Assembly: GCA_051313645.2 (NCBI GenBank) | Contig: JBNRSN020000014.1 | Coordinates: 8,618,001-8,682,000 of the forward strand | DNA: 64,000 nt | Source: Centroscyllium fabricii | Lineage: Eukaryota | Direction of reading: 5' to 3' | In this document: positions 1 through 63,476 of the stretch, piece by piece | Position numbering within the stretch: the first letter of the stretch is position 1 | Layout: the number at the start of each line of letters is the position of its first letter | Notes under the pieces: model-generated | Database searches by the model: none | Told to the model about the DNA's origin: nothing | What the model saw: the letters and a program-made list of their open reading frames with translations, nothing else | Program-made: the position numbers and the translations under genes

Positions 1-97
<97 letters not shown>

Positions 98-262
98 CTA
101 TAAAAGTGAGTCAATGAACAAACAGGACAGTTAAAGGAGAATGCCTGCACGTCTCTGCTGGCTGCATTTGACAAGAATGGCACTTACAAAAGACTCCCAA
201 ATAAACAAGTCTGGCCATCATCCAATCATGGAAAAGAACGGGTTTCCTTGTTAGCATGTTAA

Positions 263-308
263 AATATATATAAATATATGTATATATATAAATATATGTA
301 TATATATT
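263..308. repeat. TA-rich microsatellite
   Basis: atatatataaatatatgt-type repeats. Confidence 0.8.
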
Positions 309-1737
309 CATAACACAACCAAATGCACTGTTCTTTGACACAAGCAAGCCATAATGTGGAGTCTACTTACACATGTAGGATGCATGTACAGCGGGGTTTG
401 CAAGCACACCGCAGAAATAAAAGGACAATTCCTTTTAAAGTTAATGATTTACATGTGTAGACTCCAGTCAGCATGCACGGGCACCAATTGCAAAAAGCAA
501 CAACAGAGCAGCAGACTGACAAGAGCAGTGGGCCCATCCAGCGGCAGCTCTTGGAACGCATGCAGCAAAATGGCCATTTCTACTATGGCCACAGTTTGAA
601 TTTATCAAAGTCATGATCCAGCTATCAAATACCCACAGAAATGGCAAGGAAAAATAAAAGGTGAGCGGACTCATCATAATAAAACCAATATAATAAACCC
701 TTCTTCTCTTTTACTTTTTTCAATTTTGCTCTAGTCCTGCATTAGGAACCTCGATCTTTCACCTGGGCTTTTCAACAAAAAAAAAAGAGCCTACACTTGC
801 TTCGACTGTTTCTTCATGGTACTTTTCCAAATCGTGCCCTTTGGCAAGAGTGAGTGAAGAACAAAAGAGGCAGCTAGAGTACCCGGCAATGACTCCTGGG
901 CAGATCAGTGAGTTCTACACATGGAAAGTGGCAACAACAGTCCCATGGCCCAAGCACCAGATGCAAACTCTAAAGATGCGGCACGGCAACTTATTGGCAA
1001 GGATGCCCCCACCCCCTCTTGTGACAGAACTGGGAACCAAGGAAAGGCCTTTCACACTGGGCAGAAGATCATTTTGAGAGTTCACTCTGCTACAGAACAT
1101 TGCCCCTCTGCCTTCTATATCTGGAAGTGTAATTGTACAAAGTATTGGCTAAAATTACAATTAAAAAACATAAGTTCTGTGACCTTGTCTTGGAGCTGGA
1201 TTGAAATGTCTCCCAAATTCATTTAATGCGGAACCCTTACGATAGAGACTTTCACCATCATTATGGCCTAGATACAACTCAGGTCTTACAGGTGAAAGGG
1301 CACTGTACTAATCCATTGCTCAATACAGTCCCTTCCTAATATATTTAATAATTTCATTTAAAATAATATATTCATTATTTAATGTAATTTATTACATCTT
1401 TAAATTTGTATTTGGCAATAGGTGACACATCAGAGCTGTCAATCTCTTTCAATATATTGCTTTTTGTTAGAAGGATTCTTAATAACAGTCACCCATGGAT
1501 ATTTCAAAATCTTCATCACCCGTGTTAGGTAAGGTTGAGGCAGCAGGTCAGTCAGATACATGCACAAGTCTTCAATGCACCAGTGACAAAACACAAGGAA
1601 AGAGTCCAAAGCAGGGAATGGGGCCCACAGGCTTGAAGAGAAAACACAAAAGCAAAGGGATTTCTTTTGGCTCTAAAGATCTGAAAAGCCATCCATCCCA
1701 AAAAATGTACCTGTGAATGTTTGTGATGTGATTTCAG

Positions 1738-2545
1738 TACCTATGGCCAAATCCCTTTTCCCATAATGTAATCCCATTGCTTTTGGTAATATTTTATTAC
1801 CTATGCTATAATCCCATTCATGCCTTACGGTACTTTAATTGTGATCCCATTGCCTATGGTCAGGTTCCATTACCTATGATATAATTCTCATTGTCTCTGG
1901 GGTAATTACCTTAAATCAAAGGGTGTTACCTCCAATCTGCTCTCATAAGAACATAAGAATTAGGAGCAGGAGTAGGCCACATGGCCCTTTGAGCCTGCTC
2001 CGACACGGCTGATCTTCAACCTCAACTCCACTTTCCCGCCCAATCTCCATATCCCTCGATTCCCCTAGAGTCCAACAATCTATCGATCTCAGCCTTGAAT
2101 ATACTCAACGACTCAGCATCCACAGCCTTCTGGGGTAAAGAATTGCAAAGATTCACCACCCTCTGAGTGAAGAAATTCCTCCTCATCTCAGTCTTAAATG
2201 GCCGACCCCTTATCCTGAGACTATGCTCCCTGGTTCTAGACTCCCCAGCCAGGGGAATCAACCTCTCAGCATCAACCCTGTCAATCCCCCTCAGAATCTG
2301 ATGTTTCAATGAGATCATCTCTCATTCTTCTAAACTCCGGAGAGTATCGGCCCAATCTACTCATTGCTTATGGAGTACTCCTTTTGGCTGTAGTGTAAAC
2401 CTATTGCATAAGATATCATCCCAGTGCATATGGTGTGATCTGGTTACCCAAGGTCAATATCTATGGTATAGTTTCACTGCCTGAATTCAAATGCCATCAT
2501 TTACGATACAATCTCAGAGCCCAAGGTTAAATTCCATTACTATTA
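1738..2545. repeat. Degenerate ~20-bp minisatellite (cccattgcctatggtataat-like), split by a CR1 3' fragment
   Basis: Recurrent ccatt(g/a)cctatg units at 1738-1910 and 2360-2545. Confidence 0.55.
1945..2365 (-). mobile_element. CR1 LINE 3' fragment
   Basis: ORF2 C-terminus RRNFFTQRVVNL plus 3' UTR ending in (ttcttatg)n. Confidence 0.85.
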
Positions 2546-4936
2546 TAGACATAGAAACATAGAAGATAGGAGCAGGAGTCGGCCATTCGGCCCTTCGAGC
2601 CTGCTCCGCCATTCAATGAGATCATGGCTGATCATCCAAATTCAGTACTCTGTTCCTGCCTTCTCCCCAGATCCCTTGATCCCTTTAGCCTCAGGAAATA
2701 TATCCAACTCCTTCTTGAATATATTTAATGAATTGGCCTCAACTGCCCTGTGTCCAGATACACCACATCCACTGGTTCTCCCTTATCTATTCTACCAGTT
2801 ACATAGAAGCAGGAGTAGGCCATTCGGCCCCTCGGGCCTGCTCTGCCATTCAATGAGATCATGGCTGATCATTCAAATTCAGTACCCTGTCCCTGCCTTC
2901 TCCTCATATCCCTTGATACCTTCAACCTTAAGGAATATATCCAACTCCTTCTTGAATATATTTAATGAATTGGCCTCTACTGCCTTCTGTGGTAGAGAAT
3001 TCCACAGGTTCACCACTCTCTGGGTGAAGAAATTCCTCCTCATCTCTGTCCTAAATGGTTTACCCCTTATCCTTAGACTATGACCCCTGGTTCTGGACTC
3101 CCCAGCCATCGGGAACATCCTTCCTGCATCTAGTCAGTCCAGGCCTGACAGAATTTTAGAGGTTTCGATGAGATCCCCTCTCAATCTTCTAAACTCCAGT
3201 GAGTATAGGCCCAATCGACACAATCTCTCCTCATATGTCATTCCTGCCATCTCAGGTATCAGCCTGGTGAATCTTCACTGCACTTCTTCTATGGCAAGAA
3301 CATCCTACCTCAGATAAGGTGACCAAAACTGCACACAATATTCAAGGTGTGGTCTCACCAAGGCCCTGTACAACTGCAGCAAGACATCCTTGTTCCTGTA
3401 CTCAAACCCTCTTGCTACGAAAGCCAACATACCATTTTCCTTCTTAACCGCCTGCTGCACCTGCATGCTTACCTTCAGCGACTGGTGCACAAGAACACCC
3501 AGGTCTCTTTGCACTTCCCCTTCTCCCAATCTATTGCCATTCAAATAATAATCTGCCTTCCTGTTTTTGCCACCAAAGTGGATAACCTCACATTTATCCA
3601 CATTATAGTGCATTTGCCATGTTTCTGCCCAATCACCCAACCTGTCCAAATCGTATTGGAGTTTCACGACATCTTCCTCTTTGGAGATATTACATCTAGT
3701 TCCCTCGTCCAGATCATTAATATATATATTGTGAACAGCTGGGATCCTAGGACCGATCCTTGCGGTACTCCACTCGTCACTGCCTGCCACTCGGAAAATG
3801 ACCCATTTATTCCAACTCTTTGCTTTCTATCTGCCAATCAGTTCTCTATCAAAGTCAATACCTTGACCCCAATCTCATGTGCCTTAATTTTGCACGCTAA
3901 TCTCTTATGCGGGACCTTATCAAAAGCCTTCTGAAAGTCCAAATACACCACATCCACTGGTTCTCCCTTATCTATTCTATCGGTTACATCCTCAAAAAAT
4001 TCCAATAGATTAGTCAAGCGTGATTTACCTTTTGTAAATCCATGTTGACTTTGTCCGATCCTGTCACTGTTTTCCAAGTGCTCTGCTATTACATCTTTTA
4101 TAATGGACTCTAGCATTTTCCCCACTACCCACCCCACTTTTTCTCTACCAACTTTTTTGAATAGTGGGGTAACATTAGCTACCCTCCAATCCATGGGAAC
4201 TGTTCCAGAGTCTATCGAGTTCTGGAAGATGATCAGCAATGCATCTACTATTTCTAGGGCCACTTCCTTAAGTACCCTTGGATGTAGATTATCAGGCCCT
4301 GGGGATTTATCGGCCTTCAATCCCATCAATTTCCCTAACAATACTGATTTAATTCAATTCTTCCCTCTCATTAGACCCTATGTTCCTCAATATCTCTGGG
4401 AGATTATTTGTGTCCTCCTTTGTGAAGACAGAACCAAAGTATGTATTTAATTGGTCAGCCATTTCTTTGATCCCCATTATAAATTCCCCTGATTCTGACT
4501 GCAAGGCACCTATGCTTGACTTCACCAATCTTCTTCTCTTCACATATCTATAGAAGCTTTTACAGTCAGTTTTTATGTTCTTTGCAAGCTTACTCTCATA
4601 ATCTATTTCCCCCTCTTAATTAATCCCTTTGTCCTCCTTTGCTGAATCCTAAACTGCTCCCAATCCTCAGGTTTGCTGCTTTTTCTGGCCAAATTATATG
4701 TCCTCTCCTTGGATCTTATACTATCCCTAATTTCCCTTGTTAGCCACGGTTGAGTCACCTTTTTTGTTTTATTTTTATGCCAAACAGAGATGAACAAATT
4801 TAGTTCATCCATGTGATCTTTAAATGTTTGCCATTGCCTGTCCACCGTCAACCCTTTAAGTAACATTCCCCAATCCCTCTTAGCCAACTCGTGCCTCATA
4901 CCATCGTAGTTTCCTTTATTTAAACTCAGGACCATA

Positions 4937-5732
4937 GGGGGAGAATTTCCTGGAGGTGCGGGAACCTGGCGTGGATTGGTCGGGGCGGATTCCTGTCCCG
5001 CCCGCCCAAGGGCCTGGGAAGCCGACACTATTTTCGGTTAATTGCTCAATTAAATCCCCGCGTGCAGGGTGCCCCTGGTAATTGCAGCAGTCGAGTTGCC
5101 AATTACGGAGCTCAAACGGCATTCCAGGAGGTTGTCAGACAGCTGCGGCAACTGTGTGTTTACAGTTCCCATGGAAACACTCCATTGTGACATCACAGTG
5201 GAGTGGAACCAATGGGAAAGGCCAAGTGCTGTTGAGTGTCAGGTGGGCGGGCGGGCTGCAAATCTTTTGACAGCTAGGGGCCGGCTGTCAGTGGAGCTGG
5301 GAAGGTTTTTCCCCACAGCTGGTCTTCACCCAAGGGAGTGATTTACTCCTCCAGGGTGTTGAAGGCCTGGGAAGCATTTTGCTCCAGGTCCTTCAACACC
5401 TTGAAGGAGAAAATTAGCAAGACCACTGTGCTCCCGCTGGGTTTCACCTGCGGGGTTTTAGGATGGCGGGGTTTGGGTGGGAAGGGGTTGAAAATTACTA
5501 AGGGCCCTTAAAATGGCATTACAGGTGCCAATTAAGGGTCCTTAATGAGCTGAACAACCATCCCCGCTGGCTGCCGGCGGGAAAGATTCGGGGCGGGGAG
5601 ACAGGGCGGTGTAAAATGCAAAATCGGCGAGGATCCGGCGGGGGGGGGGGGGGGGGGGACCCACCGGTTCCGCTATTTTGCCGTCCAACCCACCGAAAAC
5701 CCCGCCTCACGGGGACATGAAAATTTTGGCCC
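4937..5732. mobile_element. MITE nested in CR1
   Basis: Imperfect TIRs GGGGGAGAATTT / AAATTTTGGCCC; TA flanks; CR1 is contiguous across the insert; related fragments at ~19830-20000 and ~63595-63720. Confidence 0.7.
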
Positions 5733-6171
5733 TAGTCTCTGAGTCAATTACGTCACTCTCCATTTTAATGAAGAATTCTATCTTATTATGATCGCTCCTC
5801 CCCAAGGGGCCTGCACAACACGACTGCTAATTAATCCTTTCTCATTACATAATACCCCGTCTAAGATGGCCTGATCTCCCGTTGGTTCCTCGACATATTG
5901 GTCCAGGAAACCATCCCGCATACACGCTCGGAATTCCTCCTCCACAGTATTGTTACTAATTTGGTTAGCCCAATCTATATGTAGATTAAAGTTACCCATG
6001 ATAACTGCTGTGCCCTTATTGCACGTGTCTCTAATTTCCTGTTGAATGCCATCCCCAACCTCAGCATTACTGTTTGGGGGTCTGTATACAACTCCCACTA
6101 ACGTTTTCTGCCCTTTGGTATTTCTCAGCTGTGCCCATACAGATTCCACATCATCAGAGCTAATATCTTTC

Positions 6172-6548
6172 ATAAGAACATAAGAAATAGGAGCAGGAGT
6201 AGGCCAATCGGCCCCTCGAGCCTACACCACCATTCAACCAGATCATGGCTGATCTGATCCTAACCTCAAATCTACTTTCACTCTCCATCCCGCCCGAACC
6301 CATGTGATCTCCTGGGAGAGGCGAAAAACCAGACAAAAACCCATTGGCCAATTTGGGAGAAAAAATCTGGGAAATTCCTCTCCGACCCATCTAGACGATC
6401 GAAACTTGTCCAGGAGATCACATTGCCGATCTGAACCTAGCATCACGTCCATTTACCTGCCCGCTCACCATAACCTCTAATTCCCTTTACTTTCAAGAAA
6501 CTGTCAATCTCGGTTTTAAATTTATTCAAAGTAGTAGCTTCCACAGCT
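6172..6548 (-). mobile_element. Second CR1-type 3' tail nested in CR1 ORF2, with an internal 14-bp inverted-repeat insert
   Basis: cataagaacataagaa tail; ORF2 resumes on both sides. Confidence 0.7.
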
Positions 6549-7546
6549 CTTTCCTTACTATTGTGTTAATCTCCTCTTTAACCAGCAATGCTACCCCACC
6601 TCCTTTTCCTTTTTTCCTGTCCTTCCTGAATATTGAATACCCCAGGATGTTGAATTCCCAGTCTTGGTCACCCTGGAGCCATGTCTCCGTAATCCCAATT
6701 ATATCATATGCGTTTACATCTATTTGCGCAGCTAATTCATCCACCTTATTCTGAATGCTCCTCGCATTAAGACACAAAGCATTCAGGGTGAATTTTTTAA
6801 CACTCTTAGTCCTTTTAGAATTATTATTTACTGTGGCTCTGTTTGATTTACACCCTTGATTTCTCTGCCTTCCACTTTTGCTTTTCTCCTTCCTGTCTTT
6901 TGTTTCTATCCTTGCTTCCCTTTCCTCTGTCTCCATGCACAGGTTCCCAAACCCCTGCCATTTTAGTTTAAACCCGCCCCAACAGCACTAGCAAACACTC
7001 CTCCTAGGGCATTGGTTCCGGTCCCACCCAGGTGCAAACTGTCCAGTTTGTACTGGTCCCACCTCCCCGAGAATCGGTTCCAATGTCCCAGGAAATAAGA
7101 TTTATTATTGCCTATGCTTTGTGGTATTTTGGAATGGTTGGATTGATACATTTTAATACTTTATAAGGCTTGCTTAGAGCATCTCTATGTGAATGTATGG
7201 CTGAGACTGGGAACTCACCAGTATATTGTTATTTGGGAGGTAGTGGGGGATTATTATTATTTGAGAGCAGGATGAGCGGAGTTGGTTGTAAACTTCTATG
7301 CTGCCCTAATAGCCTACAAGGTATTTCATTTACAAGAATTTTCCCTTCTATTTTACACCAAGGTTCCCACCACACAGGGACATTATCGCCCAATCTGCAG
7401 CAAGGAGTGTGGGACAACTCTGGATGGGGAGGGAACAGATTAGAATTCCAAAGTAATATTAGCAGGTTTTCATCTCATTCTTCACTTCTAACTAACTTGT
7501 TCAGACGCTAGTAAACCCGGTAAATGTCTTCTTTGTGACAGGAATC

Positions 7547-8092
7547 ACCTGCTGAAACCCTCATCCATGTTTTTCTTAGCTGGCCCCTATCTTCCACCCT
7601 CCATAAACTGAAGTTCATCCAAACCTGCTGCCCGAATCCCAACCTGCACCAAGTCCCGCTCACCCATTTCTTCTGTGCTTGCTGACCTACAATAGCTCAT
7701 AACCCACCAACGCCTTGGTTTTAAAATTCCCATCCTAGTGTTGACATTCCTCCATGGCCTCGCCCCTCCCTATCTCCGTGACCTCTTCCAGCCCTACAAT
7801 AACTCTGCGCTCCTCCAACTCTGGCCTCTTGTGCATCCCGCACTCCCTTTGCCCCACCACTGACGGCCGTGCTTTCAGCCATTTAGGTCCTAAACTCCGG
7901 ATTTCCTTCCCTAAACCTCTCTGTGTCTCTCTTCTCCTTTAGGACCCTCCTTAAAACCTACTTCTTTCACCAAGCTTTTAGTCATTCATACTAGTACCAC
8001 CTTCTTTGCCATGGTGTCCATTTTTATCTGATTATAAAGCACACTGGGACATTGTATTATGTTAAAGGCGCTATATAAATGCAAGTACTTGT
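7547..8092 (+). mobile_element. L2-like LINE 3' fragment
   Basis: Homologous to 9700-10846; ends gcgctatataaatgcaagt. Confidence 0.75.
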
Positions 8093-8737
8093 TGATTCTT
8101 GACTTTTACTTATTGTTTTCCCTTCTTGCCCTTGTTTTGCTGAATCCTATAAAGGAGCTTGCTTAACTTCCAGTTTCCATATCTGATGAAGGATCTACAC
8201 TCAAACTCATGACTTTTCTCTTTTGAAATGCTGATGGGGCTGCGGTGTATCTCCAACATTTTCTGTTTTTATTCAGAAATTCCACATTTTAGTGATGGAC
8301 CATTTTGGCAGAGGAGAGTGAGGCTTTGTATGGTCCAGACCGATCCGGTGATGGATGACTAAACAAAGTTGTACACAGGATAGATAGAGTGGTTGAGTAG
8401 ATCGACAGCTGCCTAAGTATCGTGGTGAATGGAGGGCCAAAGGTTAAGCAGTTGAGATATAGAAAGTGTCACTGTGCCACTTGGGGGAGAGTTTTTTCTA
8501 GAGAATGACACAGAAAGATGTGGAGAAGGAAAGGGGATGTTCGAAGTAATGGATACCGAGGATACGGTTGGAGATGGCCTTTTCTGTGATAGAGACCATG
8601 GAATAGAGAAGCTACGGGGGATGGCAAGGTCGAGGGAGTGGCTGTAAATATGGTTAGGAGAGTTTATACGGTGGGAGAGGTTTAGGGAGGACAGGAGGTC
8701 AGTGAATTCAGCGAAGAGAGGACAAGGGGAGCTGAGA

Positions 8738-9138
8738 GGGCGGCACGGTGGCATAGTGGTTAGCACTGTTGCCTCACAGTGCCAGGGGCCTGGGTTCAAA
8801 TCCGGCCTCGGGTACTATCTGTGTGGAGTTTGCACATTCTCCCCGTGTCTGCATGGGTTTCCTCCGGGTGCTCCGGTTTCCTCCCACAGTCCAAAGATGT
8901 GCGGGTTAGGTTGATTGGCCATGATAAATTGATCCTTAGTGTTAGGGCGATTGAATATGTGGGGTTACGGAGATAGGGTGGGATATGTGTTGATGCAGGC
9001 TCGAGAGGGATCGAGGGATATGGGGACAAGGCAGGGACGGGCTACTGGGTTTGGATGATCAGCCATGATCTCATTGAATGGCGGAGCAGGCTCGAAGGGC
9101 CGAATGGCCGACTCCTGCTCCTATCTTCTATGTTTCTA
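8738..9138 (+). mobile_element. HE1/V-SINE-like SINE: tRNA head, V-domain core and CR1-derived tail
   Basis: gggcggcacggtggcatagtggttagc head; conserved core; short tgaga direct repeats at the flanks. Confidence 0.88.
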
Positions 9139-9699
9139 TGAGATGAATGTTGAGGAGTCACTCAGTGCAGAGGTTTTCAAAAGAAAGGTGAAAAGTTCAA
9201 ACAAGGTGAAGGGCTCGAAAGAAGAGCAGGTACCAGAGGAGTAGGGGGAGCGGCCAAAGTGTGATTTGGTGATAAGGCCCATACTGTCACTGGGGCGGTT
9301 TTGGCAGGACGGGTGGTAGAAGGTATAGCAAGCCGGCAAGGCTTCAGTATGGGGCAAGGTGTCAGGATTTGTCACAGCTACAGACAGCTGATACAGGCAC
9401 AGCGGCAGAGTGGTTATGATCCTGCGCTAGTAAATTCAAATTCCACCACAGCAAGTTGTGAAACTGAATTCAACAAATCTGATCATTTGTGGGATGGCAC
9501 CAGGAAAGATCATCATAAAACCTGCCGAGTTGTAAGATGTACAAAATACATATTCTATAACTTTTTTTTTTGATGTGCCTTCGAGAACAGAGAGAAACTC
9601 TGCCAAACCGTCCTCTGTTGATTTCATAGGCTGGCTAGACTTTGCTGTACAGTAGATAGAACTGTGGAACTAACATCTGTCTGAGGCTGAACCACACTG

Positions 9700-10846
9700 T
9701 TCATAACCTTGGTGTTATATTTGACCCTGAAATGAGCTTCCAACCACACATCCGCAGCATAACTAAGACCACCTATTTCCACCTCCATAACATTGCCCGT
9801 CTCCTCCCTTGCCTCAGCTCATCCGCTGCTGAAACCTTCATCCATACCTTTGTTACCTCTAGACTTGACTATTCCAACGCACTCCTGGCTGGCCTCCCAC
9901 ATTTCACCCGACATAAACCTGAGGTGATCCAAAACTCGGCTGCCCGTGTCCTAACTCGCACCAAATCCTGTTCACCCATCACCCCTGTGCTCGCTGACCT
10001 ACATTGGCTCCCAGTTAAGCAGCGCCTCGATTAAAAAATTCTCATGCTTGTTTTCAAATCCCTCCGTGGCCTCGCCCTTCCCTATCTCTGTAATCTCCTC
10101 CAGCCCCACAACCCCCCGAGAGAGGAAAGGTCAGAGAGCAAGAGGTGTCGAGAGTCCAACTCTCTGCCGGTCCCTCCTATTGTACATCCCCTGTATCCAC
10201 CTTTTAACGCTGGAGGAACTAATTTCAAACCGGAGCACAGTTGGATAAAATGAGATGTTAGGGAAATGGAGAAGGTTGAAGATCTAAATGTCCCATGCCA
10301 GAGACTTGATCACAAAAATCTAAGCTGACACTCCAGTGCAGTACTGAGGGAGCGCTGCGCTGTTGGAAGTGCTATCTTTCAGATGAGACGATTGGACACT
10401 AGGAATTAAAGGATATGGAGATCGGGCTGGAAAGTAGAATTGAGGGCGAAGATCAACTATGATCTTATTGAATGGCGGAGCAGGCTTGAAGGGCCAAATG
10501 GCCGACTCCTGCTCCTATTTTTTGATGTTTCTATAGCTGCGCTCCTCTAATTCTGCCTTCTTGAGCATCGCTGATTATAATCGCTCAACTTTTGGTGGCC
10601 GTGCCTTCTGCTGACTAGGCACTAAGCTCTGTAATTCCCTGCCTAAACCTCTCCGCCTCGCTACCTCTCTCTCCTCCTTTAAGACGCTCCTTAAAACCCA
10701 CCTCTTTGACCAAGCTTTTGGTCACCTGCCCTAATTTATCCTTAAGTGGATCGGTGTCAAATTTGTTGTCTTAAAATACTCCTGTGCAGCGCCTTGGGAT
10801 GTTGTACTAGGTTAAAGGCGCTATATAAATACAAGTTGCTGTTGTT
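9700..10846 (+). mobile_element. L2-like LINE 3' portion, interrupted at 10120-10532
   Basis: ORF TSRLDYSNALLAGLP...LADLHWLPV; (gtt)n tail. Confidence 0.85.
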
Positions 10847-11103
10847 GAAGGCACAGCTTTGCTGCGCTAAATGGACTTTTCTCCGTTAAGGGCAAAACTT
10901 ATTCTTGAGGTGTTGGGAGAGTAGGACTGCGGTGAGGGGTGCGTGGGGCTGGGGTTGGGGGAGGGGGTGCTACAACAGAATCCAAAGCCATGCTGAAAAA
11001 AGACAGTGCAAGAAAGTAACAACAATTCACAATGCAGCCCCGCATGGCATGCCAAGGGTACTTAGTTTGTGTATGCATTAGGCTCAAAAAATTACAAACC
11101 AAC

Positions 11104-11109
11104 CGTGGT
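11104..11109 (-). CDS. CACNA1A: 6-nt cassette microexon (e31a equivalent), ACCACG = Thr-Thr
   Basis: tag|ACCACG|gttggt in the e31-e32 intron; phase 0; about 240 nt without AG and 7 YCAY motifs upstream. Confidence 0.75.
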
Positions 11110-11111
11110 CT

Positions 11112-11353
11112 ATATGTAGATGTTGTTGATGGATGATTGTAATTGGATTGCATTGGGATTAATTTGCAACCAGTTTTAAAATTAGTTGGCATGGACACAC
11201 AGACGGATACATGGATGGACACATGATATTTCATAGTGCATTTTGATTGGATGAATTATTTCAGAAGGCGTTGTGCCAATAAAGCACAGATTAAAGACAG
11301 CATGTGAAAAGATAAAACAAGAAATACATCAATCATTATAGGCAGTTCATTTT
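11112..11353 (-). promoter_or_regulatory. Splicing-regulatory zone upstream of e31a: AG-exclusion zone, distant U-rich tract and Nova-type YCAY cluster
   Basis: No AG on the minus strand for 242 nt; YCAY at plus-strand positions 11129, 11133, 11191, 11211, 11215, 11223 and 11251. Confidence 0.65.
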
Positions 11354-12769
11354 CTTTCGACAGCATTGATCTACACCAAAATACAATTGTGACAGACTGG
11401 CACACACAGGGATGGTGCACAGAGGCTGCAGGCATTGTCAGGGAAGAACAATTAACACACGTGTGTGCGCATTCACACACACTCATAGTTTGTACTTTCC
11501 TTTTAATTTGGCACTTGCATTTTTGACACTATTTTCAACTTATCATCCGTATAGCGATTGTACAAAAAGTGCCCATTTGCAGTGATTCTTATGATTTTTA
11601 TTAAGTTCTGGTGCAAAATACTGCAATTTGGACAATAATAATAATAAGAATAGCACTATTCCTAGTGAGAAAAGTAGTGCTGCTTCCAGGTTTGATAAAC
11701 AGGGCCCAAAAATAAACATCAGGTGGTAAGGGAGCACCAGTCCCATTCAGAGTGGTGGGTTAATACAGTTGGATTGTTTTTGTGGCCTCGCATACTGTTA
11801 GATCTCTGTCAGTAGTACAGGAGGCCACTGGTAAACATCCACTTTAGGTCCTACCACCCCGAATTCCCAAAGTATTCCCTAGTTGCCAGGTGCCAGTGGT
11901 TGGACCAATGTATCACTACGTAACAATGATCATCAGGCATCCAACAAAAATCTCCACATTGAATATTTTCCATTCACCACTTTTACACACACTTTCCAAA
12001 GGGGCACTGCCACCTGAAAAAATGCTTGGTAACTGGCCTCTTGCCATTTACAAACCCACAGCACAAACACATGGCAGCGCTACTTCAGCACAATATCATC
12101 AGAATTAAAATAATGTGCGGCTCTTCGCTTTCCCAAACACTTTATCATTAAGGCACTGCCCCTTTGAAAAAAAAATGTTTACGACTTTCAACCCTTAACT
12201 GTAAAAGTACTTACAATGAATAAGAAGATAAAGAGCATGCCCAGTCTGTTTTGCCTCCTGTTGCTGCCATGCTCCTTTGCTAAACAGGAGCCTTCAATTT
12301 TAGTTTTCCCTGTCATAGATTATCCTATCGTGCAGCGTTCCATACGTCCCTATTTTACATCTATATTTTTTGCATCATCACGAAGACACTGTTTACATCC
12401 CATTTTGCATTTGTCGGAATTTATGTATTTATGAAAATATGCCAGATTTTATTCATATTTTCATTACACTTTTTCAGAGAAGGTCGGTGAAAAGAGCCAG
12501 TCTTCCTTGCTGGAGGTGAACAGCTGCTGGTGGGAACAACTGATTAATCCGGATGGAACATTCTCGACAGGCTAAATGGCCTTTCCTTGTTTTTAATTTT
12601 TTTTAAATCTTCTTATAATTAATAATAACTTATCAATAATTTAAACCATGTTGTTTAGGTGGCACAGAATGGGCATGATTTCTGGACTTGGTAAGGTGAG
12701 AAATTACTCAATAGTGATTTGGGGGGAATGAGGAGAAATAGGAAATTAAGACCAGTAAAGGTCCCTGAC

Positions 12770-13085
12770 CATAGAATCATAGAATCCCTACAGTGCAGAT
12801 AGAGGCCATTTCGGCCCATCGACCCTGCACCGACATATATCCCACCCTATCCCCGTAACCCCACATATTTAATCCCCCTAACACTAAGGGTCAATTTATC
12901 ATGGCCAATCAACCTAACCCGCACATCTTTGGACTGTGGGAGGAAACCGGAGCACCCGGAGGAAACCCACGCAGACACGGGGAGAATGTGCAAACTCCAC
13001 ACAGATAGTACCCGAGGCCGGATTTCAACCCAGGCCCCTGGCATTGTGAGGCAACAGTGCTAACCACTATGCCACCGTGCCGCCC
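12770..13085 (-). mobile_element. HE1/V-SINE-like SINE
   Basis: Head and core nearly identical to the 8738 copy; (attctatg)n tail. Confidence 0.88.
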
Positions 13086-14654
13086 ACCTGTTCTGTGAAA
13101 GGACTCCTTTTGGGCGTTGTTGATTCACCATACCTGGTTTCAGATGAAGAATTATGGGAGGAAAGCAGCGCTAGCTTCTCAAACAAAAGTGAAACATTTT
13201 ATTTTTGAACTGATATTGTGAGACATTTTAGGTTCATGATGGTACTTGCGCAGAGTTCCATTCCCTACGGCAATCTGCCCATATTGTTCACCAAATGTAA
13301 AACAGAGGCAACTTGCGCTAAATCAGAATCCTTCAACTATGCACAAAAAGCATCTAGTTATACAGCCACTTCAAGTTCAACTGGGATCAATTTTAACCCC
13401 GAGTGGGTGGGGGCTGGGCACGTGTGGAACGGGATAGGCGGGAAGCTGGCGCATAGCGATTGCTGCCAGGAGAAGATTGGGCGGCCTCAGGTCTATGGCG
13501 GGGAAGTGCTTTCGGGAGGTCCCTGAGGGAAGAGGAGCTTTTCTGGGCAGGGGAGGTTGAGACTTTCCTTGTGGGGCTCGAAGCAGCACTCCCGCTCCTC
13601 CTGGCCTCACTTACCTAGAAGGACCCTCTTCATCCTTCCCACCAGCCGCAGAACTGCTTCAGACTGGCGGGGAAGCTGTGGCAATTTCCCTGCTCAAGCC
13701 ACAGTTAAAATACCATCGGGATCCTATTGATGTTATAGGACCCCAAAAACTAGCCAAATCGGAGATCGGTGGGAACAGAATGAGAAATGGAGCCATTACA
13801 TTTTAAATGCTTGTCCATTGCCCCTCCCCTCCCCGCCTTCTCCCACTATTTCAGTGAACAAAACATGGAGTATCACATCTAAAATGATCATTGTAGATAT
13901 TGAAAAACCTGTTAATTAGCACTTTAACAAATCATGAGCATAAATAATTTAAGGTAGATCCTAAATTAATGCTGCAATATCCCAATTTAAGATAGCGGAT
14001 AGATTGAGGCATTAGTGATGAAAACCTGTAACTATCTGCTCTAACCAGTTAATCTAGTTAACCTCAGTGTGAAAAACAAGTTTCAGTTGCTTGGACACAG
14101 CAAGGGTTAATGGGGCAGAGGAGCCTCTTTTAGAAGAAAACTTTGCATGTAAGAAACATTTAAAATTTGCTTTCTCCCATCATTTTCATGAATTTAATCT
14201 GCCAATTTATACAACTCATCTTTTGAAGATGTTGAGCTCTTGTTGTATCTGGTTCCACAGGCACCGTGCCCGAGTGTCCACTCCTCATCTGTGACAGTGA
14301 GTGGCAGCAAAGGCATAACATTGTGGGGGGAAGACTTGAGACTAAAAGAATCTCCCTGTGATGAGTGTTGTCCCTTTCAAAAAACCAAAAAGGGTCATTC
14401 TTCATTTGGCATCTAAATAAAATTAGAGGATATTTTACAATGATTAATGTTGGTTGCCATTCCTGAACGCCTTCAGAAGACTTTATTTAGATCAGTGTTG
14501 AGGGCTCTTCACCTGCCATCTAACCTACAAAAGCACAGAGTAAAGGAGCTGAATGGTGTACAAGACCAGAATGTCATTGGATCAGCCCCGGGGTGGTTAT
14601 TCTCCATGGTGCTAGCTTTGCAAACCAAACCAATATGAACTGTTTTCAAGGATC

Positions 14655-15165
14655 TCTTCATCTTCGACCTCTTACACTGTTCCAACGAAGCTCAACGTAA
14701 ACTCGAGGAACAGCCCCTCATCTTTCTATCAGACACTTGTCAGCTTTCTGGCCTCAACATCGAGTTCAACAATTTCAGACTATAAATTGGCCCCTGTATT
14801 TCTTTATGTATTTCTTTCCTCTTATTTCCTCACATGGTAGCTGTTAATATTGCTGCCATCATCATTCACACATCATCTAGAACTATCTTTTGTTTGTTAA
14901 CCTCTCCTTTTGTCTCGCACTATCATCCCTTTTGTCAGTCAATCTCTCCTTCCTTCCATCCGATCACAGACCTTCCCTTTGTTTTTTCCTCCCCTCCCCC
15001 CTGCCCCTGTTTAAACATCTCTCCTCCCTAGCCTTTTCCAGTTCTGACGAAGGGTTTGACTCGAAACGTTGACTCTGTTTCTGCTGCCTGACCTGCTGAG
15101 TGTTTCCAGCACTTTCTGTTGTTGTTTCAGATTTCCAGCATCCGCAGTATTTTGCGATTGTATCT
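14655..15165 (+). mobile_element. Penelope-like element 3' fragment: GIY-YIG C-terminus and pseudo-LTR with a hammerhead core
   Basis: LHCSNEAQRKLEEQ-like coding remnant; CTGACGA...GAAACGTT. Confidence 0.75.
15040..15074 (+). ncRNA. Minimal type I hammerhead ribozyme motif (Penelope-associated)
   Basis: AGTT-CTGACGA-a-GGGT/ACTC-GAAACGTT-GACT: core boxes with stem I and stem II pairing. Confidence 0.6.
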
Positions 15166-15905
15166 TCAAGGACATGGTTTGGAGCAAATCTTTAGAACTA
15201 TTAAAGTAAAAGTGGCGACAGACTCCACGATCACTGCCACAGAGCATACCTATGCTTAGATTGGCCCCTTAAAAACTCTGAGGATGACAAAACTTCCCTC
15301 GACATGAGGAAGGTAAGGATTGATCTGACTGAGGTGTTTAATGGTGTATTTACATAACGGTACAGTTTTTTAGTACACCAATATTACAATTATAATTTAA
15401 ATTCAGCCTAAATCCAGAATCAGGGCATGACTCCAGATTTGCACTACACAAGGTCAGTGTTGGTGCAAAGTGTCACACAGATGTTAAACTAATGAATTGA
15501 ATTTACAAGGTAGATAGGGATTGACTCTCCCTTCCAGAACAAGGAAGCCTCATCTTAAAATTAAAACAAAGTTAGTCAAAGGTGAGCCCAAGAAAAAATG
15601 TCGTCACATGAATGATTGTGAGAATGTAGAAAGCCTCAGTAGGGACTGAGGCAGAATCAATTGAGCTGTTTAAGAGGGAGACAGATAACTACTCAGAGAA
15701 TGAGTTATTAAGGAATATGGAGAAAGAGCAGGGAATTTGACTGAAAAATGAAAGATGTGCCATGGCCAACTAAAATGACTCAGCAGGTTTGGTAGGCCAA
15801 GTGCCATACTCCTGTTCACAGGATACTAGAGTAATTATTGTTGCCATAACAATGAGCACCTGAGATTCAATTGTCCTGCAGGGCAGGGCTCCTCCGGTCC
15901 TCTCG

Positions 15906-16198
15906 CGAACCAGAGCACACAGATTTAAGGTGATTGGCAAAAGAACCAAAGACGACATGAGGAAAAACTTTTTTACGCAGCGAGTGGTTAGGATCTGGAA
16001 CGCACGGCCTGAAAGGGTGGTGGAGGCAGACTCAATCACGGCTTTCAAAAGGGAGCTGGATAAGTACCTGAAGGAAATAAATTGCAGGGCTATGGGGAAA
16101 GGGCGGGGGAGTGGGACTAGCTGAAGTGTTCTTATAGAGAGCCGGCACGGGCTCGATTGGCCGAATGGCCTCCTGTGCTGTTACCATTCTATGATTCT
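15906..16198 (+). mobile_element. CR1 3' fragment
   Basis: MRKNFFTQRVVRIWN; attctatg tail. Confidence 0.85.
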
Positions 16199-17017
16199 AA
16201 GTGTGGAAGTATTTATTTGGCTATTCATCTGTTTAAATTACTGTATTTTCAGTGAGAACAAACACCATCACTCTCAGTATTGTCACAGAAGTAAGCACTC
16301 TCTGTTCAGGCACATTAGGCACAATGTACATTAGTGTACATTAGGCACAATCCTTAAATTCTTCTACACTACCCCAGAAATCTATCTTCATTTCCAACCT
16401 CAGGGCAACGTTCCTCATATTGCACCAGTGTGGCATTTCCATTGCTCACACCAGCCAGCCCTGCGGTCTCTCGAGTAATTTATGCCAATTTGTGCTGATT
16501 GGTTTGTGCTGGACTGGACTATCATTGGCGACATAATAAAGACAAAAGGAAAGTAGACTTTAATTGCATCTGTATGGGCCGGATTCAAACCCAGAGCCTG
16601 GAATTGAAAGGATAAAGGTCAATTTAACTGTGCAATTCCGTCCGTTTCCATTTCTGTCTGGTCGCTCACTGCCTAGAAACTTTCAATCTCCATAAACTTC
16701 AGCAGGTCCAAAAATCTGCTGCCTGTATCCTATCCTGCACCAACTCCTGCTCGCCCATTATCCCGGTCCTTGCTGACCTGCATTGTGTCCTGGTCCCCTA
16801 ATGCCTCCAATTTAAAATCCTCCTCCATGTGATTAATTCCCTTCATGGCTTCTCTTCCTCCCACCAAGCTGTGTTCCTCTGACTCTCTTGTTCGCCCCCC
16901 TCCCTTTGCCCCACCATTGGTGGCCGTGCCTTCAGCCAGCTAGATCCCAGGCTCTGGAATTTTCTCTGTAAAAGATAAAACTGATCTCAGAGAGGGAGTA
17001 TATGCTACTAAATCCTA

Positions 17018-17620
17018 CAATCATACAGGACAGGAGGAGGCCATTCGGCCCTTTGTCTCTGTGCCGGCACTTTGAAGAGCTCTCCAATTAGTCCCACACT
17101 CCCCCCCTGCTCTTTCCCTATCATTTTGCAAATGTTTCCTTTTCAGGTATTTCTCCAATTCCCTTTTGAAAGTTACTCTTGAATCTGCTTCCACTGCCCG
17201 TTCAGGCAGCGCGTTCCTGATCACAACAACTCGCTGCTTAAAAACACTGTCATCGCCTCCTGGCTTTTTGATAATTACTTTAAATCTGTGTCCTCTGGTT
17301 ACCGAGCCTCCTGCCACTGGAAACAGTTTCTCCTTATTCACTCTATCAAAACTATAATTTTGAACACCTCGATCAAATCTCCCCTTAACCTTCTCTGCTT
17401 TAAGGAGAACAACCCCAACTTCTCCAGTCTTTTCACATAACTGAACTCCCTCATCGTTGGTACCATTCCGGTAAATCTCCTCTGTACCCTCTCCGAGGCC
17501 GTCACGCCCTGTCTATAGTCGGTGCCCAGAATTGGACACAATGCTCCAGTTGAGGACGAACCAGGGATTTATAAAGGTTCAGCATAACTTCCTTGCTGCT
17601 GTACTCGATGCCTCTATTTG
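17018..17620 (-). mobile_element. CR1 3' fragment
   Basis: ERVQRRFT...LGLFSL..RRLRGDLIEVFK remnant. Confidence 0.85.
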
Positions 17621-18407
17621 GCATATTTGTCAATTTCACGCAAACAGAAATGGAGATATGTGGGAAATGGTGTAGTCTGAGGTTAGGACTGAGGTATACT
17701 AATTGAACAGAGGGAGCATTACTCTGACTCTAACTGCACTGTACCTGACCTGGGAGTGCTCGATGCTGACACGGGGTGCAGTTAAGACGGAGTCCAGAGC
17801 CAATCCACTTCACCTTTTTTTTAAATTCAGTTACGGGATGTGGGCGTCGCTGGCAAGGCCAGCATTTATTGCCCATCCCCTAAGTGCCCTCGAGAAGGTG
17901 GTGGTGAGCCGCCTTCTTGAACCGCTGCAGTCCGTGTGGTGAAGGTGCTCCCTTAATGACCTTAAGATGTCACCAAAAATACAAAGAATGAATTTCACCG
18001 CTATTTACTTCCTTTGATGGTCTTGGCGTTGCCAATCAATTGTTTCTTTAAATATTTATTTCAGATGCAGTAAATGATTAAAATAATCTCGAAATGATTG
18101 TAAAATTCTGATTGGGAGTCCAGCCCTCTGCTGCCAGAATGATCAGGCCCCATGCAGCCCTCTGCTGACAGATTAGTCAGGCTGCACTCCAAAACATTTT
18201 CAAAATGCGATTATGTGCACAAATGTTGGTGTGATCAGAACTACACAACAGGAACAGATGGAGTTGCTCCAGGAAGGCTTCAGGATTCGCAACGTCAGCG
18301 AGTCAGAAACAACCTGTCTCCTTTATTATCACAGCAGAGATGAGGCCAGTGTTTATTAATTGCTGCATTTAAGATGTTTCATGTGAATATTTCTAATGTA
18401 CACTTAC

Positions 18408-18491
18408 CCAAAATTCTGTCACTAATATATCAGTGACACTGCCCAGGACTGTGACAAAATCAAATACATTCCAAGCATCCTGAAAATAGTT
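18408..18491 (-). CDS. CACNA1A: Cav2.1 exon (e31 equivalent, IVS3): [28 protein letters not shown]
   Basis: 84 nt, cag/gtaagt; translated by hand. Confidence 0.94.
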
Positions 18492-44910: not shown

Positions 44911-45862
44911 TTCAATTCAATTCAATTCAAGTTTTGTCATTGCAGAGTACGAGTGCAATACAACGAAACGAAGATTCGCCGCTCCCGAGAGTGGTGCAAA
45001 TAAGTTACATACAATTTCATACAATAAAGTACATTTCAGGTGTGCAGATACTGGAGTTTTTTGTTAGAGTTCAGGAGGCTGACAGCCCTGGGGAAGAAGC
45101 TGTTCTTGAATCTAGTCGTGCGGCTGCGAATTGATCTGTAGCATCTCCCGGAGGGCAGGGGGGCGAACAGACTGTGGCTGGGGTGTGTGGGCTCTTTAAT
45201 AATGTTCAGAGACCTCCGTAGGCAACGTTTGAGGTAGGTGCGTTCGATTGACGGTAGCTGGGTGCCGGTGATTCGTTGGGCAGTTTTGACTACCCGCTGC
45301 AGGGCCATCCGGTCTGAGATGGTGCAGTTCCCATACCAGACTGTGATGCAGTTTGTCAGTATGCTTTCGATTGTGCAGCGGTAGAAGTTGGTGAGGATGC
45401 CAGATGACAGCTTGGCTTTTCTCAGCTTCCTTAGGAAGTACAGGCGCTGTTGGGCCTTCTTAATCAGAGAGGAGGTGTTTAGTGACCAGGAGAGGTCTTC
45501 CGAGATGTGGACTCCGAGGAACTTGAAGCTGGACACCCTTTCCACCTCAGCCCCTTGGATGAAGATGGGGGTGTGTCTTCTGCTTTTAGTCTTCCGGAGG
45601 TCCACTATGATCTGCTTGGTTTTCTTGGTGTTCAGTGCCAGGTTGTTATCGGCACACCATCCCACAAGGCGCTGAATCTCATCCCTGTAGGCTGACTCAT
45701 CATTGTTGGTGATCTGGCCAACCACCGTGGTGTCGTCCGCGAACTTGATGACCGTGTTGGAGCCGTGGGCAGCCGCACAGTCATGGGTGAAGAGGGAGTA
45801 GAGGAGGGAGTAGAGGAGGGGGCTCAGCACACAGCCTTGTGGGGCCCCCGTGTTCAGGGTAA
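44911..45862 (-). mobile_element. Rex1/Babar-type non-LTR retrotransposon, 5'-truncated, open RT C-terminus, (TTGAA)n tail
   Basis: TGAPQGCVLSP..FTHDC..KFADDTTVVG..KKAQQRLYFLRKL; splits a CR1 3' fragment (44820-44910 / 45875-46045). Confidence 0.9.
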
Positions 45863-46481
45863 AGGGGGGGAGGTGAGGTTGAGGCGAATAGCACAGATGT
45901 ATTTAAGGGGAAACTGGATAAACACATGAGAGTCAAAGGAATAGGAGAATATGCTGATAGGGTGAGATAAAGAGGGGTGGGAGGAGGCTCATGTGGTGCA
46001 TAATGGCCTGTTTCTGTCCTGTTTGTCCTGTAGATTCGATGTAATATGGTTGAAACTTCTGATATACTCCAGTTCTTGAAGGCAAACAATTCAATTTTGA
46101 AATCACTGATTTTCAACACGTCCTTTATAATCTTATGGCTAGTCCTTTCGATTGAGGGGGAAATATATGTGAGGCACATCAAGCTAATTCTGGGAAGAGG
46201 GATGTCTTGCCTCTTTGCATTCTGTGATGTCTTCCAGTTCAAGTTTAGCAAGCATTGCCTCAGTTATTCCATCCCAGCCCAGCCCTTGAGTTGCTGTAAT
46301 TTAGTTTTCAAACTTTTCTGAAGATATGAATTCACAGAAAATTCCAGCTATTTGAGGATGTTAGGAAAGAGCAGCATTTCAGGAGAATTATACACTGATT
46401 AGGATCAAGCATTTTAGTTTCACTCATCTTTATTATGACATGTCTAAGCAAGAATCAGTGCCAAATTATAGATAGTATTTA

Positions 46482-49569: not shown

Positions 49570-49728
49570 CTGATTGCAGATTCCCTAGCTGAAATTTTTG
49601 TTGGAGGATAATCCTGCCAACCGATGGAAGGACTGTTAGAGGTTCTTCGTTTTGTAGAAAAACTTAAAAATTGAAGGTAAATTTCGAGCACACGTGGCTG
49701 AACTGTTGTCGTCGTTGCCAGAGTCCAG

Positions 49729-52700
49729 ATGGCCATGCCTATGGGAATAATAGGGCGCTTGGGTGAGTTCCAACGCGACAGAGAAACTTTCGGAGCATAT
49801 GTGGAGCGTCTAGAAATGTTTTTCACCACGAATAGTATCGTCAAAGTCTCCGATGATGTAAACCGTAACCGGGCGGTTTTAGAAATGAAATGGGCTACTT
49901 TTTTGACTGAAGCAGGCCCCGAGATGTATGAAACCCTGAAAAATTTGCTTGTTCCTGCCAAGCCAAACACACTGAAGGAGATCCTAACCAAATTAGAACA
50001 GCACTACAGTCCTGAACCCCTGGAAATTGCTGAAAGTTATCGTTTTAGAACACATGATCAATTAAATGATGAGGGTATCAGTGAGTACAATGTAGCTTTA
50101 TCCATTCACTGTCATTTCAGAAACTTTCAGGACCGAGCTTTGCGTGATCGCTTTGTTTGTGGGTTGAAAAATGAATGTATCAGAAGTAAATTGTTGACGA
50201 CCCTTAAATTTACTTTTGACTTAGCTTGTCATACAGCTATGTTGATGGATATGGCCGACTGATACTCCCGAGAGTTCCGCGCTATTTCCAGTCATCAGAC
50301 AACCGAGGTGAATCGGCTGCAGGCTAATAGTAAAAGGCAGTTGGGCCCCAAGGCCTCAGCAACTGGCCAAGGTAATTGACGTCGTGCTATCAGTGCCTGG
50401 GACAGCACATCGCTCAAAGCTGTCCATATGTGGAGGCAGAGTGTTTCCACTGCAAGAAAACTGAGCATCTTGTGAAGGCGTGCCGACAGAAGAGTAAACC
50501 AACTGGCAATGCTCGAAGTAGAAATCGGCAGACACTACATACCGCTGAAGAGAAGCAGCAGGACGTGGAATTTCTGGAGATTCATGTTATCAGGAGTACG
50601 ACGGTATCCAACAGCGATTTGCGAGGTGTAGATGTCGCAGGAACCAGGATAGCCATGGAAATCGACACTGGTGCATCCGTGGGCATAGTACCGGAATCAC
50701 TAGATCTCGACAAGTTGCGTGATTATCGACTAGAGAAATCGAAGGTATGGCTGTGAGGCTACTCAGGACAGCAAATCTCTGTAGTAGGACTACCAGTGAA
50801 ATACAAGGATCAGTGTCAGCTTGCCCATCATAGTAGTGGCAGGAGACAAGCCTGCCTTGATAGGCAGAAATTGGTTGGGATCACTGATACTGGATTGGAA
50901 TGAGATTTTTCGTGTGGAAGCGAAATTTGCATCGAAAGATGATGTCATCAAGCAGTATCCGAAGGTGTTCAGCGAAACGGGCAGCCCGATACAAGACTTC
51001 AAGGCAAGTGTCAGAGTGCAGAAGGATGCAAGACCAGTTTACTGCAAGCCACGTCCCATACCATACGCACTCGAGGAGAAAGTTGAACAAGAACTTAAAA
51101 GACTAGAAACTGAGAACATTATCTCTAAGGTAGATCTGAGTAATTGGGCTACATCCATTGTTGTTGTACCTAAGCCTGATGGTAAGGTAAGGTTGTGTGG
51201 TGATTATAAGATAACCGTAAACCAGGTTCTAGAGTGTAACCTACCCAATACGTTGCCAAATGTGGAAGATTTGTTCACACAAGTGGCCAGGTCTTTTCGA
51301 AGTTAGATCTAACAAACACCCACCTACAACTTGAGTTAGATGAAGAATCCAAGTCATGCCTGATTATAAATACTCACCGAGGCCTATATCAGTGCAACAG
51401 GCTACAGTGCATGGCGGCACGGTGGCATAGTGGTTAGCACTGTTGCCTCACAGCTCTGGAGACCCGGGTTCAAATCCAGCCTCGGGTACTATCTGTGTGG
51501 AGTTTGCACATTCTCCCCGTGTCTGCGTGGGTTTCCTCCGGGTGCTCCGGTTTCCTCCCACAGTCCAAAGATGTACGGGTTAGGTTGATTGACCATGATA
51601 AATTGACCCTTAGTGTTAGGGGGATTGAATATGTGGGGTTACGGGGATAGGGATCGAGAGATATGGGGAGAGGGCAGGGGCGGGGTGCTGGGTTTGGATG
51701 ATCAGCCATGATCTCATTGAATGGCAGAGCAGGCTCGAAGGGCCGAATGGCCTACTCCTGCTCCTATCTTCTATGTTGCTATGTTTCTATTTGGAGTGTC
51801 TTCTGCCCCTGACATATTCCAGGGGGTGTTGAAGCTTTGCAAGGAATTGAAGGGATGGTGTGTCATTTGGATGACACTCATTTCAGCACCAAACAGGCAA
51901 ATCCATGATGAGTTGCTGACTGAAGTGCTCAAACGGTGAGAGAAGCACGGAGTGTGAGTGACAGCTCACAAGTGGGAGTTGTTTCAAAACTCAGTGGAGT
52001 ACTTAGGACACCGAGTAGGCAAAGATGGTTTACATCCAATCAAGGGAAAGCTGGATGCAATCAGAAATGCACCTGCTCCCAAGAATGTCTCTGAACTTCA
52101 ATCATTTTTGGGTCTTTTGAATTATTACGGAAAGCTCCTCCCAAACTTGGCTTAATTGTTACATCCACTGAATGAGCTGTTGAGAAAACAGGTCCCTTGG
52201 AAGTGGTCAAAGAGTGTAAATGCCAGTTAGTAGAGAACCATGTTAGTTCACTATGAAGTATCTAAGGAGATCAAGCTAGCATGTGACGCCTCTCCATATG
52301 GAGTTGGGGCAGTGATCTCTCATGTACTAGATAGTGGGGAGGAGAGACCAATTGCTTTTGCTTCACGCACTCTCAGTGCCAGTGAGCGGAATTATGCGCA
52401 GATTGAAAGGGAAAATTTGTCATTGATTTTTGGGGTCAAGTTGTTTCACAAATACTTGTTTGGTCATGTTTACCATAGTTACAGATCATAAGCCCCTAAC
52501 AGCAATCCTCCACCCAAAGTCCCCAGTTCCAACCTTAGCTGCAGCCCGAATGCAGAGATGGGCTTTGTTTTGTCAGCGTATATGTATGACATTGAGTACA
52601 GATGATCAGCTGATCACAGTAACGCTGATGCTATGTCCAGGTTGCCATCCCCATCACAGGTTACGCCCAATAAGGAAGAAGTGTTCTATTTCTCATACAT

Positions 52701-53930: not shown

Positions 53931-53931
53931 G

Positions 53932-54272
53932 TGAGGGGCATAGATAGGGTAAATAGAAAGGAACTTTTTTCTTGGTAGAGGGGTCAATAACAAGGGGGCA
54001 TAGTTTCAAGGTAAGGGGTGGGAGGTTTAGAGGGGATTTGAGGAGGAACTTTTTCACCCAGAGGGTGGTTGGAATCTGGAACTCACTGCCTGAAAGGGTG
54101 GTGGAGGCAGGAACCCTCACAACATTCAAGAAGCATTTAGATGAGCACTTGAAATGCCATAGCATACAAGGCTATGGACCAAATGCAGGAAAATGGGATT
54201 AGAATAGACAGGGCTTGCTGGCTGGCACGGACGCGATGGGCCGAAGGGCCTCTTTCTGTGCTGTATGACTCT
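53932..54272 (+). mobile_element. CR1 3' fragment inserted in Gypsy
   Basis: TRGHSFKVRGGRFRGDLRRNFFTQRVV. Confidence 0.85.
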
Positions 54273-62540: not shown

Positions 62541-63476
62541 TCCCAGTACTGCCTGTTAACGACCTGCGCACCTTTTCCCCCATTACTGGGGCTCCGGACC
62601 ACTATCGGTCACAGAAAATATACCAGTTATACTAAATTGCTCAAAGCCGTCAGCAGAATCTGACAGTCAAAGTTTAGTCCAACCTCATTATTACGCAATA
62701 AGGTACAGCAAATGGGCAGCTCATCTCTTCAAAGCCTCTGTATTTTCCCCAAAGTTTTTTTCCTGAAGAAGCCAACTCCTCACTGGGGTACATTTCCATG
62801 TGATGGCTGTCCTTCTAGTACCACAGCCAAGTGAGCATGCTTCACATGCAAGCCTAGAAAGCGAGCACTGGCTAATGATCACAGGTGAGCAATCACATCA
62901 GAAGCTATCCCAATCCTCTGCTTCCCTGAATGCAACACACTTTGCAGATTCAGTCTCTGAATAATTATAGATACTTAGAACTTACAGCACAGAAACAGGC
63001 CATTCAGTCCTGTTTATCTATGCCAGTGTTTATGCTCCACCTGAGCCTCCTCCCACCCCATCAACATATCCTTCCATTCCTTTCTCTCTCATGTGCTTAT
63101 CTAGATTTCCCTTAAATACACCTATGCTATTCATCTCAACTATTCCCTGTGATCGCAAGTTCTCACTACTGTCTGGGTAAAGATGTTTCTCCTGAATTCC
63201 CTACTAAATTTATTAGTGATTATCTTATATTTATGACCTCTAGTTTTGGACTGCCCGCAAGTGGAAACATCTTCTCTACGTCTAACCTATCAAATCCTTT
63301 CATAATCTTAAAGACATCTATCAGGTCATAAGGAATTAGGGAATTTATCTCTGGCAGATTTTTCCCTCTCTAACCCAGGCCGGCTGAGATCGGTTAACTC
63401 AGCCCAGACCAGGGATTATCCCTGTGGCCTTCCTGCTGTACATGACGCAGATACTCACTGGGCAGTGCCTACTTAC

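Follow-up and report, generated by a model that had tools for sequence, protein, structure and literature searches.

Exon 31a (e31a) of the mammalian Cav2 channel genes is six nucleotides (nt) long, adds Asn-Pro (NP) or Glu-Thr (ET) to the channel, and slows its activation (PMC5279877; also PMC2311404). A two-residue change in the IVS3-S4 loop also alters the affinity for omega-agatoxin IVA (PMC2311392). The locus described here raises the question of whether a shark Cav2.1 gene carries a counterpart of this exon and, if so, what it would encode and how its inclusion would be controlled. A first-pass annotation had placed such an exon in Cav2.1, between the segments IVS3 and IVS4, within the 64-kb stretch of DNA analysed here (the window). 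Ten exons frame the candidate, and we list them with the intron that would contain it.

19176-63536, minus strand: eight further CACNA1A exons with AG/GT bounds, covering IIIS2 to IVS2 (63536-63477, 59620-59514, 30967-30871, 29132-28972, 26109-25969, 24450-24249, 20703-20539 and 19286-19176)
18408-18491, minus strand: upstream constitutive exon of 84 nt with AG/GT bounds, matching IVS3 of human Cav2.1 and Cav2.2 and ending in TEFW
98-18407, minus strand: host intron of 18,310 nt, phase 0, split by the candidate microexon into an upstream part of 7,298 nt and a downstream part of 11,006 nt
1-97, minus strand: downstream constitutive exon, truncated at the window edge and forming the start of IVS4

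All ten exons are bounded by AG and GT, and together they give 408 stop-free codons from IIIS2 to IVS4. The 408-residue product finds its best match in bowfin Cav2.1, at 91% identity, with teleost Cav2.2 proteins reaching at most 85%. In a tree of 33 rows, with neither shark nor intact tetrapod Cav2.2 among them, the shark sequence falls within Cav2.1 with a branch support of 95/96. We also scored the 15 columns that distinguish Cav2.1 (17 proteins) from teleost Cav2.2 (12 proteins), a fragmentary walrus row being excluded; 13 of these diagnostic columns are of the Cav2.1 type, one is of the Cav2.2 type and one is neither. On the human structures, the 165-nt exon at 20703-20539 scores 118.5 bits against Cav2.1 and 104.4 against Cav2.2, and two shorter exons give near-ties. 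The most divergent exon best matches a Callorhinchus fragment (83%), which fits a cartilaginous fish. That exon's matches and the two near-ties had hinted at a Cav2.2 host, a reading overturned by the 408-residue comparison, the tree and the diagnostic columns. By these comparisons the host gene is a chondrichthyan-like CACNA1A, and both the Cav2.1 identity and the IVS3-S4 location claimed at first pass are supported. Separately, we observed that the 141-nt exon at 26109-25969 (minus strand) encodes an IIIS5-S6 outer loop one residue longer than that of human Cav2.1 or Cav2.2.

The candidate and the elements around it are as follows.

11280-11337, minus strand: U-rich tract in distal position; a candidate distant branch point, TTGAT (11332), is predicted from sequence just 5' of it
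11112-11353, minus strand: AG exclusion zone of 242 nt, the longest in the intron and reached in 0 of 300 shuffles
11105-11254, minus strand: YCAY motifs forming a candidate Nova silencer, starting at 11254, 11226, 11218, 11214, 11194, 11136 and 11132, and within the exon at 11108
11110-11112, minus strand: 3' splice site TAG; the pyrimidine tract next to it is weak, as judged by pyrimidine fraction
11104-11109, minus strand: candidate 6-nt cassette microexon ACCACG of the e31a type (YAG/GT bounds, phase 0, frame kept, Thr-Thr as in teleost Cav2.2a)
11098-11103, minus strand: 5' splice site GTTGGT (ACG/GTTGGT), weak by matrix score and U1 duplex

The full sequence TAG/ACCACG/GTTGGT occupies 11112-11098 on the minus strand, deep in the 18,310-nt intron as had been claimed. 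The junction between the exons at 18491-18408 and 97-1 is in phase 0, and with the 6-nt insert the protein reads TEFW-TT-KNIINL, which bears out the proposed Thr-Thr (TT) reading. The 6-nt option is the only one that keeps the frame; the next GT dinucleotides, at +10 and +14, both shift it. The candidate lies in a CACNA1A gene, in the phase-0 IVS3-S4 intron, is six nucleotides long, is bounded by AG and GT, preserves the frame and encodes a dipeptide homologous to known inserts.

Short motifs of this form are not rare in so long an intron, which contains 34 instances of YAG-N6-GT (2.5% of its 1367 AGs). Among these 34, ACCACG is the sole one that codes for TT, ET or NP, and also the sole one preceded by an AG-free zone longer than 57 nt; a random hexamer would encode TT about once in 256. 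The donor context G/GTTGGT occurs once in the intron, at the microexon. We found no second copy of the region 10850-11600 within the 64-kb window, and Rfam returned 0 matches.

An independent comparison came from protein models of other vertebrates. We fetched 461 proteins, of which 169 contained the IVS3-S4 loop and 113 of these had a loop of the Cav2.1 type. An exact TT insert at the IVS3-S4 junction was present in 12 of the 169, all of them teleost Cav2.2a models, from nine species ranging from carps to perches and salmon (Micropterus, Toxotes, Thunnus, Centroberyx, Trematomus, Gasterosteus, Salmo, Sinocyclocheilus and Cirrhinus). Two Micropterus isoforms, one without TT (P0217) and one with it (P0218), show that the insert is facultative. 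In alignment, the teleost TT falls on the ET of human Cav2.2 (PDB 7mix), where human Cav2.1 (8x90) has a two-residue gap. The upstream exon of a teleost cacna1b-like locus (L006) ends in AAT/GTAAGA in phase 0. A shifted donor or acceptor would not account for the teleost dipeptide, because the first residue would then be Val or the insert would end in AG; by inference, the Cav2.2a insert needs a microexon of its own. The shark site had been picked from the DNA before this match was known. The shark and teleost inserts share both the dipeptide and the exon junction, and the teleost one is present or absent among the isoforms of one species; they differ in that the teleost insert belongs to Cav2.2, not Cav2.1, and is known from database protein models (NCBI/UniRef) only. 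Our literature search found no paper on the teleost cacna1ba TT insert.

No two-residue insert appeared in any of the 113 retrieved Cav2.1-type loops, mammalian ones included. The expectation that automated annotation would miss the exon therefore stands for the retrieved Cav2.1 models and fails for teleost Cav2.2a, where 12 models carry TT. Likewise, the dipeptide had been called a different one, which is right relative to mammals (NP, ET), but TT is shared with teleost Cav2.2a. Protein searches for chondrichthyan isoforms, of which the word-index ones covered proteins of at most 2000 residues and so excluded full-length channels, returned no chondrichthyan protein across the junction and only short fragments from Callorhinchus, Chiloscyllium and Rhincodon. 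A metagenome scan yielded 37 loci, 11 of them translated and two teleost cacna1b-like, both ending less than 400 nt from the upstream exon; none spanned such a vertebrate intron. Other small inserts were seen at the same junction: a single Met in 18 teleost Cav2.1 models (P0010, P0019, P0044, P0055, P0091, P0096 and others), perhaps a 3-nt microexon, and a Gln in three teleost Cav2.2b models, where a tandem acceptor is possible.

Because the teleost TT matches in the ET column, and only one of the 34 intron candidates codes for TT, ET or NP, we consider the six shark nucleotides likely to be a true orthologue of e31a, and a spliced 6-nt exon at this site very likely. Like the mammalian CACNA1A exon 31a (NP; P-type versus Q-type), the candidate lies in the same paralogue and intron, is six nucleotides long in phase 0, falls in the IVS3-S4 loop and has YCAY motifs in the silencer position; it differs in encoding TT where the mammalian exon encodes NP, and its splicing and Nova control are predictions. 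With the mammalian CACNA1B exon 31a (ET) it shares the length, a large intron, the alignment column and Thr as second residue. That exon belongs to the other paralogue, and its first residue is Glu where the shark has Thr, so that the shark insert adds no charge. The mouse Cacna1b e31a intron spans 10-12 kb (PMC5008151).

Upstream of the candidate, the preceding AG lies at 11355-11354 on the minus strand, leaving an AG-free zone of exactly 242 nt (11353-11112), with the U-rich tract about 170-215 nt upstream of the microexon; both features appear as first described. The zone is the longest gap among the intron's AGs, the runner-up being 102 nt. In 300 dinucleotide shuffles of the intron the longest gap averaged 92 nt and peaked at 159, and the zones at the ten constitutive acceptors of the window measure 16-62 nt. 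A second branch-point candidate, CTAAT, starts at 11185, at -76. A large AG-free zone is a predictor of a cassette exon, and the set of Gooding et al. 2006 comprises 165 human exons whose zone measures at least 150 nt and has a U-rich tract at its 5' end (PMC1431707). At 242 nt and with a distal pyrimidine tract, the shark candidate resembles these distant-branch-point exons, although it is far shorter than most of them and its branch point is a prediction. On the antisense strand AG-free gaps extend up to 161 nt. As a control, the longest gap anywhere on the sense strand is 263 nt, ends at 43453, and precedes no recognizable in-frame exon with a good donor; a long AG-free gap alone therefore does not prove an exon.

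That longest zone merits description in its own right. It belongs to a region (43716-43300, minus strand) of the IIIS3-S4 intron, where exon e24a is expected, other Cav2.1 e24a sequences being SSTR, SSSR and SSAR. Two bases beyond its AG stands TCC AGT TCT (Ser-Ser-Ser), with no donor, and about 100 nt farther on lie a dense YCAY cluster, in the Nova enhancer position, and tag/TTT/gtgagg at 43331. The region is possibly a decayed or unusual e24a; a search of this 28.5-kb intron for a 12-nt e24a gave no convincing exon of the SSxR type. The same intron holds a 9-nt candidate that would keep the frame, cag/TCACTTTTG/gtaaga (42071-42063, minus strand); its donor is fair, its AG-free zone measures 53 nt, and YCAY motifs lie to either side. 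At 53734-53473 (minus strand) a possible 107-nt stop-containing exon goes with an AG-free zone of 153 nt whose pyrimidine tract is strong. This zone is probably due to chance, because it is antisense to what looks, from the text of its open reading frames, like a decayed element of the Gypsy type (49700-53950, plus strand). Elsewhere, the first intron of the window carries long open frames on both strands, tandem-repeat-like, in units of about 11 codons (61600-62660), and several decayed LINE-like reverse-transcriptase pieces with repeated 3' ends lie in introns at 1500-10850 and 45000-45900.

The splice sites of the candidate are weak. Between -20 and -4 its acceptor has a pyrimidine fraction of 0.53, compared with 0.71-0.88 at the ten constitutive acceptors of the window. 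The donor scores -1.3 against 4.1-8.7 for six constitutive donors, on a rough weight matrix whose weights are approximate and are not those of MaxEnt. Its predicted U1 duplex, at -5.2 kcal/mol, is among the weaker ones, the duplexes of nine constitutive donors running from -4.6 to -12.2.

The first-pass annotation had further described an intact silencing architecture, with YCAY motifs upstream and CCAC in the exon. The motifs are present: the 242-nt zone contains eight, seven within its last 150 nt and one in the U-rich tract, and in addition there are the exonic CCAC and another YCAY 62 nt past the exon start. Their positions agree with silencing, since the Nova map assigns YCAY around the 3' splice site to the silencer position (PMC2014790). 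Their density does not bear out the claim to the same degree. The count of eight between -150 and +6 was matched by 5 of 410 tiles of this strand of the window, but relative to shuffles of the region itself it is not above local composition (mononucleotide, p = 0.063; dinucleotide, p = 0.85), and the constitutive acceptor at 63536 has six YCAY across the same span. In mammals, the text of PMC12149502 states that Nova2 favors e31a skipping in both genes, even though a table in that paper gives exon 31 a "+" for Nova2, contradicting its own text; promotion of Cacna1b e31a skipping by Nova2 is reported in PMC5633781, and Nova2-driven skipping also in PMC10676324 and PMC3849787; all four papers cite Allen 2010. 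Because the YCAY count is not above local composition, we only infer Nova repression of the shark exon.

Several other explanations of these observations deserve weight. The foremost accepts a real microexon and denies Nova the main role: the CA-rich, AG-poor spacer would be a side effect of the distant-branch-point layout, and inclusion would depend on PTB-type proteins bound to the U-rich tract, or else on SRRM3/4 acting through UGC. The shuffle results for YCAY favor such an account, as do the TCTT/TTCT motifs between -214 and -157 and the three UGC at -43, -59 and -82, all inside 90 nt, and the layout of SRRM-type exons indeed combines long AG-free zones with UGC (PMC8797185). On the other hand, the YCAY motifs lie around the 3' splice site and extend into the exon, as the Nova map has it for silencing, and the mammalian e31a is itself repressed by Nova2 (PMC12149502, text; PMC5633781). 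SRRM3/4-dependent neural microexons moreover have a strong donor with UGC near the 3' splice site (10.1101/2024.09.17.613571); the nearest UGC of the shark site is the one at -43, and its donor, weak by two rough scores, is unlike those of the mammalian targets. We therefore regard this account as unlikely, while acknowledging that the same weak donor also counts against our preferred explanation, typical neural microexons having strong ones (10.1101/2024.09.17.613571). Less probable still is a relic of an ancestral e31a that the shark lineage no longer, or hardly ever, splices. The weak donor, the weak proximal tract and the lack of a two-residue insert among the 113 Cav2.1 proteins would suit a relic, but without selection the 242-nt zone would fill with AGs (the shuffle maximum being 159), and the AG, the GT and both TT codons are all intact.

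The two remaining alternatives seem to us very improbable, to about the same degree. The acceptor could be real and pair with a donor farther downstream, at +10 or +14, giving a frame-shifting exon and decay of the transcript. The GT at +10 does form a more stable U1 duplex (-6.1 kcal/mol, compared with -5.2 at +6), and either choice shifts the frame; but then it would have to be a coincidence that ACCACG fits the TT/ET column of the paralogue. Alternatively, the site could be a chance A/C/T-rich, AG-poor stretch of intron that happens to end in YAG-N6-GT, as the 34 such motifs, the antisense gaps of up to 161 nt and the 263-nt sense-strand gap with no clear exon might suggest. For this to hold, the longest gap of the intron, a motif found at 2.5% of its AGs and a 1-in-256 dipeptide would have to coincide.

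Our preferred explanation, which we consider probable as a whole, is that the candidate is the cartilaginous-fish orthologue of CACNA1A exon 31a, a Thr-Thr cassette under Nova repression. Spliceosome assembly would take place at the distant branch point with its U-rich tract, some 200-230 nt upstream, followed by scanning to the first AG, as has been described for exons behind long AG-free zones (PMC1431707); with the proximal tract and the donor both weak, the exon would by default be skipped. Further repression would come from Nova bound to YCAY, both in the exon and in the stretch that separates it from the branch point, so that inclusion would be confined to Nova-poor neurons, with skipping predicted in most brain neurons. 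An included exon would lengthen the extracellular S3-S4 loop of voltage sensor IV by Thr-Thr and, if it acts as NP and ET do, slow activation. Lacking the proline, the shark dipeptide would probably miss part of the structural and toxin effects of NP. The toxin effect of e31a may not carry over to the shark form: the proline is missing, and Cav2.1 of zebrafish has been described as rather insensitive to omega-agatoxin IVA (PMC7939481, citing Wen 2013).

The proposal that the switch predates the split between sharks and bony fishes already follows from the presence of e31a in both paralogues. The exon class itself is already known, and the new element here is that TT matches between the paralogues. 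On grounds of parsimony, since TT is common to the shark Cav2.1 candidate and teleost Cav2.2a, it is possibly the state before the duplication and not specific to sharks; this argument draws on two lineages, the shark one represented by a candidate exon. The codons ACC and ACG are each one base away from Asn and Pro codons, respectively. Tentatively, then, and at somewhat less than an even chance, TT was ancestral in the Cav2.1/Cav2.2 precursor and was kept for more than 400 million years in shark Cav2.1 and teleost Cav2.2a, with NP (P- to Q-type) arising later by two single-base changes, ET arising by changes in the first codon, and the distant-branch-point, Nova-silenced layout being retained. 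Our literature search, which covered few subscription papers, turned up no account of a shark Cav2.1 e31a or of a TT form; splicing atlases such as VastDB, or RefSeq shark models, could list one.

The e31a switch is a classic case of two residues altering the gating and toxin sensitivity of a calcium channel. The site is an example of a candidate 6-nt exon detected from DNA alone, and it opens no new mechanism. If true, the match between the shark TT and that of teleost Cav2.2a would polarize the history of e31a, with TT ancestral and NP and ET derived, and the TT form would offer a natural control that separates the effect of loop length from that of particular side chains, Pro and Glu.
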